From assembly GCF_004010195.1 (NCBI RefSeq), contig NC_057718.1, positions 73,989,775 through 74,053,774 of the forward strand: DNA of 64,000 nt, read 5' to 3'. Positions 733 to 62,934 of this stretch are shown here, piece after piece; the first letter of the stretch is position 1; every line of letters starts with the position of its first letter. Source of the DNA: Chiloscyllium plagiosum. Taxonomy: Eukaryota. The translations under genes and the position numbers were made by a program. The notes beneath the pieces were generated by a model that did not search any database, was not told where the DNA came from, and saw only the letters and a list, made by a program, of their open reading frames with translations.

Positions 733-888
733 AGGAATTCAATGACCGGATCTTATGTCCAGAGTTGACTGATGATGAGATGCAAACTCTTCACGCGGAA
801 GTGAAGAAAATTTACGTGACCTATTGTCTTGATGAAAGCATTGATAAAATCAAATTTGATCCATTTATTGTGGAAGAGATACAACAGG
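733..888 (+). CDS. SNX14: SNX14 coding exon (RGS domain), [52 protein letters not shown]
   Basis: CAG acceptor 730-732, GTAAGT donor at 889; peptide recognisable as vertebrate SNX14; phase 1-1. Confidence 0.95.
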
Positions 889-10864: not shown

Positions 10865-10989
10865 TTGCAGAAGGATCTTACAGGAATGTAGTGAAACTTC
10901 AGACCATGCGCTGTTTGTTCGAGGCATATGAACACGTCATGAATCTGCTTGAAACTGTATTTACGCCTATGTTTTGTCACAGTGATGAG
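10865..10989 (+). CDS. SNX14: SNX14 coding exon, [42 protein letters not shown]
   Basis: CAG acceptor 10862-10864, GTATGG donor at 10990; in frame with previous exon (G|TT). Confidence 0.95.
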
Positions 10990-14355: not shown

Positions 14356-14414
14356 TATTTCAGATATTTGTTGAAAGGGGCAGAGTCACCAACACGCAAC
14401 TCCAAATCCAATAG
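14356..14414 (+). CDS. SNX14: SNX14 coding exon, YFRYLLKGAESPTRNSKSNR
   Basis: Pyrimidine tract and CAG 14353-14355; GTGAGT donor at 14415; phase 0-2. Confidence 0.95.
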
Positions 14415-16573: not shown

Positions 16574-16600
16574 AAGTAGCCTGAATTTGGATGATTTTCG
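16574..16600 (+). CDS. SNX14: SNX14 27-nt microexon, (R)SSLNLDDF(R)
   Basis: T-rich tract and CAG 16571-16573, GTAAGT donor 16601; symmetric phase 2-2; matches the GSLSLDDFR segment of mammalian SNX14. Confidence 0.92.
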
Positions 16601-17424
16601 GTAAGTATGCATGCACAATATGGAGAAATACCTATTGCAGGCAGGAGCAGCATGTCACTCCACCCTCATAGTCCATATTGCATCACATTTTTACAGAATA
16701 GCCTTATGGACTGTACACAAGCTTCTGCCTTTATAACAATCTGAATCTTGAAGTTTACTGTTTTAAGACTTAATTTGTCTCCAGGTTACCCTTTAATTAA
16801 ACCTAGTCAACAACTTTCTGCAATGTTTTAAATTTGGTTTTCTATTTGGTTTTGCTCCCTACAGTAGAAATACTATTGGTCCATATTATGTATAATGAAA
16901 TTTAAATATATAACTTAAAATTTTGTGTCTCTAATATCTATAATGAATAATAGATGGCAGTAAATCACTTAACGTGTATGAAAGTAAGCGTTCTATGCAA
17001 TCTACCATTAACCATCAAATTCTAGCATGCAGCAGTAAGTCCTAGATTTGTTTTGCCAAAATGTATTATAATTTATGATGTCAAAACAAAAGATCATATC
17101 CCATATTTTGAGGCGACTCATGTTCAGTTTGTCAATAAGCTTATCTGTAATTCAGAACTATGTAGCAGAAAACACTTTTGTGAAGTAACCTAATGTCTTG
17201 AGGATTAACTTCATTTTTAAAAAAATGAAGAGTAACTTTTGTAATTTTGCTCCATGCACTTACCAGTTTAGCTGTACACATGCAGTCCTTGCCTGACATG
17301 GTTCTACAAACTCGAGTTATTTCTTCATTTCTAACTTGAAAGAGCTGCATTTAGCACTTACAGATGGGTAGACAGTAATATTGTGATTTTGCCCATAATC
17401 GGTGTGAATATAACAGTGAGCTGA

Positions 17425-18445
17425 GAGCTCCATAACAAAGGGATCTTGATCAATTGGGCCAGTGGGCTGAGGAATGGCAGATGGGATTTAATTTGGATAA
17501 ATGTGAGGTATTGCATTTTGGTAAAGTGAAAAATGACAGGACCTGTACAGTTAATGGTAGGGCTGTGAGTAGTAGTGTTAAACAAAGAGACCTAGGGGTT
17601 CAGGTACATAGTTCTTTGAAAGTTGCATCATAGACAGGGTGACTAAGAAGGTAAAAACGATGACTGCAGATGCTGGGATCCAGATTCTGGATCAGTGGTG
17701 CTGGAAGAGCAGAGCAATTCAGGCAGCATCCGACGAGCAGCAAAATTGACATTTCGGGCAAAAGCCCTTCATCCTGATGAAGGGCTTTTGCCCGAAACGT
17801 CGATTTTGCTGCTCGTCGGATGCAGGGTGATTAAGAAGGCATTTAACATGTGTGCCTTCATTACTCAGACCATTGAGTATAGGAGTTGGGGGTGTCATGT
17901 TCACCGTTACAGGATGCTGGTTAGGCCACTTTTGGACTGTTGTGTACAGTTCTGGTCACCGTTATATGATGGATATTATTAAATTGGAGAGAAAAAAGAT
18001 TTGTCAGGATGTTGCTGGGAACAGAGGTTTTGAGTTATAAAGAGAGGCTGGTTAGCCTCAGGCTTTGTTCACTGGAGCGTAGAAGGTTGAGGGGTGACCT
18101 TGCAGAGGTTTATGAAACGATGAGGGGAATAGCAAAGATTTTCCACTATAGGGTGGTGGAGTTCAAGGCTAGGGATCGTACTTTGAAGGTAAGAGGAGAA
18201 AGATTTACAAGGGATCTGAGGGGCAATGTCTTCATGCAGTGGCTGGTTCGTATGTGCAGTGAACAGTGGATGCAGGTACAGTTACAACACTTAAAAGGCA
18301 TTTGGACAAGTACGTGAACAGGGAAGGTTTGGAGGGATATGGGCCAAATGCAGGCAAGTGGGATTAGTTTAGTTTCAGGAAACCTGGTCGGCATGAATGC
18401 GTTGGACCTAAGGATCTGTTTCCATGCTGTTTGACTCTTATGGAC
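17425..18445 (+). mobile_element. CR1 LINE 3' fragment
   Basis: WAEEWQMGFNLDKCEVLHFG, LVRPLLDCCVQFWSP, SLERRRLRGDL motifs. Confidence 0.9.
17652..17822. mobile_element. Fold-back pLTR insertion with canonical hammerhead core
   Basis: ATC-CTGATGA(17774-17780)-AGGGC-TTTT-GCCC-GAAACGTC-GAT; TSD CAGGGTGA(C/T)TAAGAAGG at 17635-17651 and 17823-17839, interrupting CR1. Confidence 0.85.
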
Positions 18446-19820: not shown

Positions 19821-20311
19821 ACCATCTGCATTGGTTTCTCTTCCTTGCTACGTTGTTACTTTTAGCATCCTCCAAAGATATCTCCTTGTCCCCAGTTAGA
19901 TGCAGATGCTGGGAAATTCACCCAAACACAGAATTATTTCCTTTGTATATGATAATGTACCTGAATCGCCAACTCTCCTTGAGCTCTCCACTGGAAAGTT
20001 TTTCTCATGTTAAATATTAGAAGCCCTCAAAGCCATTTCAAACTCAGATCCCCAGTGATAAACTTCATCCTTCTCCCTGACGGTTTATTTGAAGCAAAAC
20101 CAGATTGTTTGCAACCTTTGTCTTGTGCTCGACCCTGCAATAAACTGCTAAACATGTATCAATAAGATCACTGAGACTCCCTGTTTCTACTTCTGCAGAA
20201 TAGGCCCTACTGCTGAATCCTATTTTTGTGCCTTTATTACTGGTTGGTCTCTCACTTTCTCCTCTTTGTAATTTGAGATTGTACAAAACTCTGCCCATTA
20301 CTTAAGTCATG

Positions 20312-20512
20312 AGTGTGTTGCTGGAAAAGCACAGCAAGTCCAGCAGCATCCGAGGAGCAGGAGAATTGACATTTCGGGCATATTCCTGATGAAGGGCTCC
20401 TGCCCGAAATGTCAATTCTCCTGCTCCTTGGATGCTGCCTGACCTGTTGTGCTTTTTCAGCAACACACGCTCGACTCTGATCTCCAGCATCTGCAGTTCT
20501 CACTTTCTCCAA
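20312..20512. mobile_element. Fold-back pLTR insertion with hammerhead
   Basis: CTGATGA 20386-20392, GGGC-TCCT-GCCC, GAAATGTC; TSD ATTACTTAAG(T/A)CATG at 20297-20311 and 20513-20527. Confidence 0.82.
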
Positions 20513-20810
20513 ATTACTTAAGACATGCCAAGTTCTGCTCACTATTTGGCAACTGACCTACACTGGCTCCTGATTATGAAATGTCACAGCCTTTTCGCTG
20601 TTTTTGCTTTCCACCCTACAACCCTGTTAAGGTATCAGTGCTGTTATAATTTTAGCATCTTAAGCTCCCCATTTCAATGGTTCTACCATTGGAAGTCCTT
20701 TTGTCCTAAATCTCTATCCTTGCAGCTCTCATCCTACTTTCAGATGATCCTTAAAACCTGCTTCTTTGCCCAAACATGTGATCTCCTGGTCTAATACCTC
20801 CTGATATAGC

Positions 20811-21562
20811 TGTTAAGACGGACCCGGAGGGTCCCGTCTTTGCGTGTTCTTTTGGAAGGAGAGACTCACACTGGCAACTATGATTAGACGCAGACAGCAG
20901 TTTATTCACAGAATCTTAACTGGTACAACGAATCTACAGGCATGCATTCGTTGGAGAAGGCGTTCTGCCTTCCCGTTCAAAGTTGACACAATTATACTTC
21001 GCGCTGCCTGGAGTCCCCGGTCAGTTCGCCTTCCCCATTGGTCCATTCGTCTGCGCGCGCTGGGGATCCGTCCTCCTATTGGCCGCATCGAAGTGCCTGT
21101 CCAGCTCCAGCTGTGCTTGACAATGGCTCAGCCATCCCTGGGAGCGGTTCCGATCCCGTATTCAATAGTCCATTGTGTCAAGGAATTACTATGCGTCTGA
21201 CAGGCTAGCCATTTTCAATAGTTTTAGTTTAACTAAATTGTCAATTACACTTATCAACTTTAGACTTAAATAGAGCCATTCACACTCACTAGTTACAGGT
21301 TCCGATAGAGCAATTCACACTTGTCTAACAGTTACAGATTCCGATCAGTTTCTTTATGAATCCCGAGTTTCGATGGGGCAATTGATACTGGCTGGTATTT
21401 ACAGGCTCCAAGATTTAATTAACATTATGCATATCCCTTACAAGCTCCAGCAGTCATGCAATCGCCTGCAGCAGCTCGCTTGGCTGTTGTTAACCATTTC
21501 AGGGCTGGAAGTGTCACCCTCCCTAGCCCTACATTAAACACCGCAGTGAAATCTCCCCAACA
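20811..21562 (-). mobile_element. Solo LTR, young (CpG-rich)
   Basis: TGTT...AACA ends, perfect 4-bp TSD TAGC (20807-20810, 21563-21566); on - strand CCAAT x2 (21078-82, 21037-41), TATAAT (20991-96), AATAAA (20901-06). Confidence 0.85.
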
Positions 21563-22003
21563 TAGCTCAACATTGAATTTTGTCTGATAAGAGATTTTTT
21601 TTAAATGATTGGTTCTTCAAGCTATTTTTTCTTTTTAATCTTCATAGTCACATTTCAAAATGGCTTATTTTGATTAAAAATGTTTATTTGAGAGTTATTT
21701 TTGACTGTGGAGATTCTCGCACTGACATGAATGTCACAAAAAAGGGAAAATTCAAATAGTAATTATGCAGTTATTAGAAATATTACTGTTAAATCAAGAG
21801 TTTGTTGTAAAGGCAGAAAACATTTTTGCTTGAATTTTGTTGCCAGAGCAGTATGTTATTGAATGCAGAAACTTGTGGCTGGCCATAGAGCGCTCCAGTT
21901 AATGAATGCAAATGCTGAAGCTAATATCTATCTGTTTCTCTTTTCACTGATTAATGCTGCCTATTGGATATGTTTTTTTAAAAAACAAAAATTTGTGGGT
22001 TAG

Positions 22004-22159
22004 CACCGAACAGGATTTAAAACGGGGCACTGAATCTGCATCTCTAGGGCAAGCTGCCTCCATGAATCAAGGGTCTTCATCTGCATCTGTTTTTCCTCAT
22101 GTGCAGTCAATCTTAACACTTCCATCTGGCATTTTACCTTCTCTCCCTGCTGCTATAAC
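22004..22159 (+). CDS. SNX14: Candidate SNX14 alternative cassette exon (156 nt, 52 aa, Ser-rich)
   Basis: First AG after an ~80-nt AG-free zone (TAG 22001-22003), GTAAGT donor at 22160, symmetric phase 2-2, stop-free in the SNX14 frame, non-repetitive context, TGCATG at 22194-22199. Confidence 0.65.
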
Positions 22160-22787
22160 GTAAGTCAGGGTCCATTCACACTCCTTTGTAACATGCATGG
22201 ATATTTGTGTCAAAAGTCTATCCCACCAACCATTAAAACATGTGTTTTGTGTCTGTGTCCTATAGTTTGGGTTTTATACTGGCTTGTTTACATTTGTCTA
22301 TGTATTTGATAAATGGTTTGTTTAAACAAAAATTTTGCATATTTTATCTACCCATTTTCAGTTGTATAAAACATCAGAAGTGCATTAACTGAAACATAGA
22401 ATATGGATGGAAATGAAGTCTTCGAACTGTTGTTAAAGAAATCTGGTGCCAAATCATTTAGCATGGAACAAAGCCAACTTCCCACCATTCCTGTGCTGAT
22501 CTGAGGATTCTTGCACTCCTTCCCCTTCCCTGTAGCACTTCAAACTTCTCCTTTTGAAGTAAACATTCAAATACCCTTTGAAAATTATTACTGAATCAGT
22601 GTATCGCCGCCAGGGCATTCCAACTCTCAGCCCAGTAAAACATCTCATATTTTTGATTCTTTTACCAGCTCTCCTAAATCTCTTTTTTCTGGATAGCATC
22701 CTTCTTACTAGAGTTCTATTTATTTGCTGATATAGTTTATCATTTATTTTTGTCGGTGTATTGACTGTGCTTGAGCTAGATTTAGAC

Positions 22788-23150
22788 TGAGTCAAAAATC
22801 TCGCAACACCAGGTCCAGCTGGTTTATTTGGAAACACTAGCTTTCAGAGCATTGCTCCTTAATCAAGTGCTAGTGAGAGAGGAAACCCTTAGGCACAGAA
22901 TTTATAGGGAAAAGATCAAAGGGAACAAATTGAACACATCTAAGCTGGCTAAGATATTCAATTTGTTTGCAGAAGTTGTATGACCTTTTGATGTTTTCCT
23001 TATAAATTCTGTCTAAAATCTTCAGGTGCTAGTGAGAGAAGAAGCAGTGCTCTGAAAGCAAGTGTTTTTAAATACACCCGTTGGACTATAACCTGGTGTT
23101 GTGATTTTTTGATTTTGTCCAACCCAGTCCAACACTGGCACTTCCATATT
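22788..23150. mobile_element. Inverted Penelope pLTR remnants (third family, degenerate hammerhead)
   Basis: Inverted arms CAACACCAGG..CTAGCTTTCAGAGC / GCTCTGAAAGCAAG..CCTGGTGTTG; related copy at ~37895-38050. Confidence 0.55.
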
Positions 23151-39182: not shown

Positions 39183-39587
39183 TATGAGCATCAGAGTTGT
39201 ATTGGCAGTGTTGAACTGTTTCAGTGAATACTCTCAAATTTCAAATTCTACATTCACTTTCAAAAGTGCTCAATATCTTCTCATTAATTTTATGTTTGAA
39301 GGTGGTTGAATTAATATGCTTTATTTTCTCTCTTCACTGTTTGATTTTACTATATTATGCCATTAGATCTGTAATAAAATGCACAAGAAAAAGTATATCC
39401 AAATTCACTGAGCTGGTAAATTGTAGCCTTCAAAAGACACTCTCGTTGCAATTGCCATCAACAAATCAGAGCTGCTCTTTGTATCTGACCATTGCATGAG
39501 CTGATCTTTACACTGCATGTTCCACATTTACTCAATCATTGTTTAACATGTAAAGGATTTACTGACCCATTGTCTGCTGTCATTCAG

Positions 39588-39720
39588 GGGCTCCAATAAA
39601 CGTGGAGAATCTTTTGGAATAAGTCGAATAGGCAGCAAGCTCAAAGGAGTCTTTAAAAGCACAACAATGGAAGGAGCTATGTTGCCTAACTATGGATTGC
39701 CAGCAGCAGATGATGATCTT
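39588..39720 (+). CDS. SNX14: SNX14 coding exon, [44 protein letters not shown]
   Basis: ACTGAC branch site 39561, CAG 39585-39587, GTGAGT donor 39721; phase 2-0. Confidence 0.96.
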
Positions 39721-45736: not shown

Positions 45737-45920
45737 GTTGAAGAAGCAACAGTTGTGTCTGAGGATGATTTAATTGAAGAATTAGCAATCACTCCCAATG
45801 CTCATCGTAACCTTTCTGCTTGGAAAATAAGCATTCCATATCTGGACTTCTACTTTGACAGTAAAAAGGAGAAAGTCCCAGTCTTCTGTATTGAAGTAAT
45901 TCGAAATGAAGATGGGTCAG
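45737..45920 (+). CDS. SNX14: SNX14 coding exon (PX domain start), [61 protein letters not shown]
   Basis: CAG 45734-45736, GTAAGC donor 45921; phase 0-1. Confidence 0.95.
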
Positions 45921-52231: not shown

Positions 52232-52315
52232 AAGGACGTGAAAATGAAAACTGCTTTGTTTACCGAAGATATTTTGAATTTTACGTCCTTGAATCGAAGC
52301 TTACCGAGTTTCATG
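52232..52315 (+). CDS. SNX14: SNX14 coding exon (PX, RRY motif), [29 protein letters not shown]
   Basis: Pyrimidine tract and CAG 52229-52231, GTAAAG donor 52316; phase 1-1. Confidence 0.95.
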
Positions 52316-62833: not shown

Positions 62834-62934
62834 GATCTTTCCCAGATGCGCAGCTTCCTTCAAAGCGACTCATTGGATCCAAGAACTTTGATTTCCTAAA
62901 TTCTAAACGAGAAGAGTTTCAGGAATATCTGCAG
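62834..62934 (+). CDS. SNX14: SNX14 coding exon (PX), (G)[33 protein letters not shown]
   Basis: GACTGA branch-like motif, CAG 62831-62833, GTATGT donor 62935; phase 1-0. Confidence 0.96.

Follow-up and report, generated by a model that had tools for sequence, protein, structure and literature searches.

The closest described counterparts of the exon reported here are found in isoforms of its own gene, SNX14, whose product is an ER-anchored contact-site and lipid-handling protein and whose loss causes the human ataxia SCAR20. An orthologous exon occurs at the same site in isoforms X2 of Scyliorhinus canicula, X5 of Carcharodon carcharias and X3 of Hemitrygon akajei, and likewise in isoforms X2 of Erpetoichthys calabaricus, Acipenser ruthenus and Ambystoma mexicanum. 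These isoforms are predicted models (RefSeq 'X' isoforms are usually backed by RNA-seq) and show no difference of substance from the exon in our window. The exon is already present in RefSeq models, including those of three other elasmobranchs, and is not a hidden exon. Among the papers listed by full-text searches of the literature, none describes the cassette, an event that supplementary tables or splicing atlases could list, and no functional description of insert-bearing isoforms was found.

Splicing changes in mammalian SNX14 have been reported with the exon unnamed in the available text (PMC6048363; bioRxiv 10.1101/2024.07.17.603550), and the available part of a whale-shark preprint mentions SNX14 for its gene length only (bioRxiv 10.1101/443036). 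A human pathogenic pseudo-exon, c.867+288A>G, is known from the same gene but from another intron (PMC13116672). It follows c.867 (approximately codon 289), whereas the insert follows approximately codon 490, and it was rejected as a relic of the cassette.

Among described classes of exons, distant-branch-point exons (Gooding et al. 2006, PMC1431707) share with the cassette a branch-like motif and a pyrimidine tract at the 5' end of the AG-free zone, and are likewise linked to alternative splicing. The cassette differs from this class in that its zone, with 81 nt, stays below 100 nt and contains additional branch-like motifs at -53 and -49. With RBFOX-regulated cassette exons it shares TGCATG, here a putative RBFOX element, in the intron downstream of a frame-preserving exon that encodes a disordered region.

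The cassette exon and its homologues

The window, a 64,000-nt stretch of the Chiloscyllium plagiosum genome, holds nine SNX14 exons on the plus strand, located by tblastn with catshark SNX14 and delimited by a frame test (Table 1). The exons match catshark SNX14, a protein in which Pfam finds PXA, RGS, PX and PXC domains and whose best solved-structure matches are to the PX domain of SNX14. The first exon in the window has a tandem acceptor, CAGAG at 733-735, of which the upstream AG would shift the frame.

Table 1. Features of the SNX14 locus in the window
Feature	Position	Strand	Remarks
SNX14 exons 1-5 in window	735-888, 10865-10989, 14356-14414, 16574-16600, 22004-22159	+	tblastn and frame test
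SNX14 exons 6-9 in window	39588-39720, 45737-45920, 52232-52315, 62834-62934	+	tblastn and frame test
Upstream SNX14 microexon	16574-16600	+	27 nt, SSLNLDDFR; skipped in many fish isoforms; TGCATG at 16608
AG-free zone	21921-22001	+	81 nt; branch-like motifs, pyrimidine tract, then A-rich, pyrimidine-poor stretch
3' splice site TAG of cassette	22001-22003	+	junction at residue boundary of homologous isoforms
SNX14 cassette exon	22004-22159	+	156 nt, phase 2-2, 52 residues, RGS-PX linker
Conserved 25-codon core SSSASVFPHVQSILTLPSGILPSLP	22074-22148	+	from alignment; limits set after viewing the alignment
5' splice site GTAAGT of cassette	22160-22165	+	from sequence
TGCATG, putative RBFOX-type element	22194-22199	+	35 nt downstream of cassette
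Two TGCATG (39493, 39514)	39493-39519	+	distal end of intron after cassette; -95 and -74 before next exon
Downstream SNX14 exon	39588-39720	+	encodes conserved basic amphipathic segment ~10 residues past insert

The initial annotation had proposed an in-frame 156-nt exon in the RGS-PX linker, and the frame test, the homologous insert and the domain positions agree with it. The exon has a length divisible by three, a symmetric phase, AG and GT ends and an open frame. Joined to the microexon and the downstream exon, it gives an open frame and the peptide that had been read from it; the join that skips it is open as well, and all four in/out combinations of the 27-nt and 156-nt exons are free of stops across the nine exons. 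It lies within 20516-22791, a stretch without self-repeat that corresponds to the island of unique sequence described earlier, in a 23 kb intron with a self-repeated share of 35%. Between microexon and cassette, head-to-head SINE-like copies (17719-17830 and 20305-20476) are arranged as near-perfect inverted repeats (91% over 55 nt and 88% over 76 nt), which are possible substrates for double-stranded RNA editing.

The cassette peptide as query retrieved seven matches among 69 candidates, all of them SNX14 isoforms. Identity to the window peptide is 92-94% in catshark, white shark and stingray and 67% in reedfish, and three mormyrid rows match likewise. A second search, with the linker of the reedfish as query (1,259 matches among 1,547 candidates, the best 120 of which were used), and a profile search (100 matches among 8,000 scored candidates) add sturgeons, arowana, eels, tarpon, shad, characins, catfishes, pikes, salmonids, smelt, cods, many percomorphs and the axolotl as carriers. 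With the three protein searches pooled, 96 of the 173 listed rows match an insert-only profile at E<=1e-3, 13 of these 96 having built that profile. The axolotl was absent from the profile-building set, and its insert matches the profile at E 7.5e-11 and the window peptide at 26 of 51 residues (51%, pairwise E 2e-14). The insert occupies one site in these database isoforms, and in the six isoforms named at the outset it follows the DD[F/I/L]R of the microexon. A search of shark and teleost snx14 isoforms, which had been suggested as a check, finds the insert in place.

The homologues are mostly automatic gene models in databases. One insert-bearing protein of 985 aa (P0167) is encoded on an assembly contig of 3,373 bases, which implies an assembled spliced transcript. 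A metagenome scan for the flanking DNA of relatives gave 45 pattern matches, none of them confirmed. Judged by the conservation of its peptide, 22004-22159 is almost certainly a real SNX14 exon.

Unrelated inserts at or beside the same junction were observed in sterlet, killifish, four-eyed fish and one fragment (P0048, P0074, P0168 and P0206), and the intron may be especially prone to exonisation or to errors in gene models. P0048, P0074 and also P0041 were rejected as carriers, their inserts being unrelated and without a match to the insert profile.

The insert peptide and the RGS-PX linker

In the catshark protein the insert occupies residues 491-542, between the RGS (335-464) and PX (649-729) domains as delimited by Pfam. 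An AlphaFold2 model built on 101 sequences (mean pLDDT 76.3, pTM 0.66) has pLDDT values below 50 over residues 475-606, the insert included, and renders the insert as coil; an alignment of 37 fish and axolotl sequences gave a mean pLDDT of 40 and was set aside. The insert is accordingly placed by prediction in a disordered RGS-PX linker, and the low pLDDT of this linker agrees with a flexible arrangement of RGS and PX (bioRxiv 10.1101/2021.11.30.470681).

Approximately ten residues downstream of the insert, catshark residues 553-564 constitute a basic segment with a helical hydrophobic moment of 0.60, the 97th percentile of the protein. The segment is conserved from vertebrates to distant SNX14-like proteins, a strict pattern of it recurring in 13 of 149 representatives. 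The SNX14 literature contains, in its available text, no description of this segment and no assigned function for the RGS-PX linker. The RGS domain binds Rab9, Rab11, Rab32 and Rab38 (PMC13596360) as well as G-alpha-s (PMC8280035). With the RGS upstream and the basic segment downstream, the insert would be flanked by a GTPase-binding domain on one side and by a probable membrane-binding helix on the other.

The insert had been characterised as Ser-rich, which holds to a modest degree (10 Ser and 4 Thr in 52 residues); the feature that stands out most is the hydrophobic core conserved in its 3' half. Identity of this core to the catshark is 96% in reedfish, 84% in sterlet, 88% in both Paramormyrops and eel, 76% in arowana, 64% in tarpon and axolotl, and 44-68% in six clupeocephalans. 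Outside the insert the proteins are 75-79% identical to the catshark, one incomplete model excepted (77-78% in the four basal lineages); the linker after the insert is 66-69% identical in reedfish, sterlet, Paramormyrops and eel, and in the 5' half of the insert the identity of 13 bony vertebrates to the catshark is 9-43% (17-43% in the four basal lineages). The mean core identity of 0.89 in the four basal lineages is matched by 137 of the 890 windows taken from the rest of the protein.

We interpret this pattern as strong constraint within a disordered linker, which suggests a linear docking motif, and we regard the chances that the core is a protein docking motif as evenly balanced. The core is not essential, since it is eroded in the axolotl and the clupeocephalans. 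A search of a protein atlas with the 53-aa peptide gave no usable match, and Pfam found no domain in the insert. Judged by the core definitions of the LIR (Atg8-binding) and calcineurin LxVP motifs, a LIR-like FPHV is present in 7 of 15 inserts and an LxVP-like LTLP in 5 of 15, patterns so short that they often match by chance.

Alternatively, the exon could be a regulated spacer, in which the 3' half is kept for RNA-level splicing elements and the peptide contributes linker length only. Frame and length (41-67 residues) are indeed held in all 15 tabulated lineages while the sequence diverges, the exon is still present in percomorphs despite a rewritten core and in the axolotl despite the loss of hydrophobic residues from it, and the insert is modelled as coil. 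We nevertheless consider a pure spacer rather unlikely, as the core remains 84-96% identical between the catshark and four basal ray-finned lineages, with changes that are mostly conservative or small insertions, and the RNA fold of the exon region (21900-22230) is nothing unusual (z 0.26). Inclusion adds 52 residues to the disordered linker between the Rab/G-alpha-binding RGS and the PX and, under the docking-motif reading, would set a short hydrophobic linear motif ahead of the deeply conserved basic amphipathic segment. The long form would then probably gain reach plus one extra docking site.

Splice signals and proposed control of inclusion

The splice signals listed by the initial annotation, CTAAT at 21921, CACTGAT at 21945, TAG at 22001-22003, GTAAGT at 22160 and TGCATG at 22194, all lie at those positions, with candidate branch-point A residues at -79, -53 and -49. 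The zone described as AG-free for about 80 nt measures 81 nt, the longest of the nine acceptors in the window, the others having 13-52 nt. A pyrimidine tract is present as claimed, at approximately 21926-21945 directly after CTAAT, but the last 25 nt before the cassette AG are pyrimidine-poor (fraction 0.32, compared to 0.55-0.73 at the eight other acceptors). The stretch from the tract to the AG is A/U-rich, not CU-rich, and contains no YTRAY nearer to the AG than -49. The cassette hence combines a branch motif and adjacent tract, both at a distance of over 40 nt from the AG, with an AG exclusion zone shorter than 100 nt. The cut-off for a 'large' zone is 100 nt, and 2,264 of 67,334 human introns reach 80 nt (PMC1431707), so that a zone of 81 nt is unusual, not extreme.

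We interpret the acceptor as weak, because 50-80 nt separate the pyrimidine tract and the best-placed branch motif from the AG that follows, and the donor as strong; a moderately distant branch point would presumably be used. We propose that with such an acceptor skipping would be the default state, and that inclusion would occur in the presence of an activator.

Downstream RBFOX sites activate exon inclusion, and the activator would most likely be RBFOX acting on the downstream TGCATG, in which case inclusion would be favoured in nerve and muscle. TGCATG lies within 100 nt of one of 18 splice sites in 5 of its 17 occurrences in the window, where 0.48 are expected. The enrichment is not clean, because the antisense control CATGCA also occurs near splice sites (5 of 32, three of them overlapping sense sites). 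The microexon has TGCATG at +8 and GCATG at +50. GCAUG is bound by RBFOX (PMC11874969), and we put forward an RBFOX-driven nerve and muscle bias tentatively, as a proposal with slightly less than an even chance of being correct.

The main rival to RBFOX control is that this real cassette obeys other main regulators, for example PTBP-type repression via the AG-free zone, with TGCATG being incidental or directed at the microexon. In human cells a SNX14 splicing event, the exon of which is unnamed in the available text, is under the control of PTBP1 (PMC6048363), and distant-branch-point exons are often PTB-regulated (PMC1431707). The element at +8 of the microexon and the equally enriched antisense control likewise speak for it. 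Against it, the bases that separate the tract from the AG are rich in A and U, not in C and U, and the TGCATG at +35 and the two distal copies fit the rule of downstream activation by RBFOX. We regard control mainly by such other factors as rather unlikely.

Evidence for optional inclusion comes from pairs of database models with and without the insert in the same species, which in 13 of 14 cases are 97-100% identical over the aligned residues. These pairs are from reedfish, sterlet, tambaqui, croaker, snakehead, icefish, bass, wolf-eel, two soles, stickleback, pike and leatherjacket. Both forms of one gene in 13 bony-fish species identify a cassette exon in bony fishes, as had been claimed; for sharks, the claim is an extrapolation. 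The remaining pair, in Pygocentrus nattereri, was rejected as a cassette pair, being 75.7% identical and consisting of paralogues. Its member P0046 is a second, long-branch snx14 copy; the insert that it carries at this site looks similar, on inspection, to the ancestral core (SILTL...IL.SLP) and lies below the profile cut-off.

No skipped elasmobranch isoform is among the matches listed, and all three elasmobranch rows carry the insert, a pattern also expected if the exon were constitutive in elasmobranchs and alternative only in bony fishes. We consider this improbable. The list from the reedfish-linker search covers the best 120 of 1,259 matches, and clusters hide members; the cassette acceptor is the weakest of the nine by pyrimidine content; skipping preserves the frame; included and skipped forms coexist in reedfish and sterlet; and the insert is missing from 149 more distant representatives. 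In Chiloscyllium plagiosum the exon is, by extension from bony fishes, very probably skipped as well.

The 27-nt exon is optional independently of the cassette. Its motif is present in 41 of the 96 insert-bearing rows and absent in 55, several of the latter (P0126, P0143, P0170, P0172-P0174) being fragments or intron read-through frames. Since the microexon is skipped in many fish isoforms with the cassette, the linker has four in-frame forms.

Three of the four GTAAGT donors in the host intron have an upstream AG that gives an open in-frame candidate, so the splice signals of the cassette alone are no better than chance; its status as an exon follows from homology, not from these signals. A pseudo-exon produced by chance, as the two further open AG...GTAAGT candidates in this intron might suggest, is refuted by a peptide kept at the same position from sharks to the axolotl. 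The account as a whole, that is, an old optional exon with a weak acceptor, RBFOX-type control and a spacer plus docking motif, appears to us likely on balance.

Age, probable loss and significance of the exon

Since the exon occurs in elasmobranchs, in ray-finned fishes and in a salamander, we assign it to the last common ancestor of jawed vertebrates. It would accordingly be at least as old as that ancestor and have survived into tetrapods. None of 149 further, mostly distant SNX14-like representatives matches the insert profile (best E 0.8), and their linkers are mostly 76-136 residues long, compared to 107 in the skipped reedfish form. This suggests a gain in vertebrates, without dating it.

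The initial annotation had also assumed an ancestral exon that was lost in mammals. Its ancestral nature is supported from sharks to the axolotl; a loss in mammals is consistent with the searches and no more. No amniote carrier is among the listed matches of the reedfish-linker and profile searches, an absence that weighs little because the database groups sequences at 90%, one of the searches had a size limit, and the lists also lack zebrafish, coelacanth, lungfish and frog, so that carriers may be hidden, amniotes included. One representative (P0208), which we take to be amniote-like, is without both optional exons. We think it probable that the exon is absent from amniotes, presumably by loss, and since the axolotl keeps it, any such loss occurred after the amphibian-amniote split. 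The exon would thus have been kept in elasmobranchs, ray-finned fishes and the axolotl and probably lost in amniotes, and its core would have eroded separately in the axolotl and in clupeocephalan teleosts.

A bolder scenario, which we regard as unlikely in its entirety, is that early jawed vertebrates had a long neuron and muscle form of SNX14 with a docking motif (e.g., of Atg8 type) between the RGS and an ancient membrane-binding helix. Two optional exons would have provided four forms, the motif would have decayed twice (in salamanders and later teleosts), and the exon would have been deleted in amniotes. If this is true, fish brains may run an SNX14 tether that is absent from mammals.

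The cassette represents no new kind of system; it is an example, placed in time, of an exon that has eroded and has probably been lost. An optional exon with a core as conserved as folded domains between sharks and basal bony fishes points to the linker as a regulated site, and with the core a defined peptide is at hand with which partners can be sought. In practice, fish used to model SNX14 disease may have isoforms that are absent from humans, with consequences for rescue constructs and for comparisons across species.
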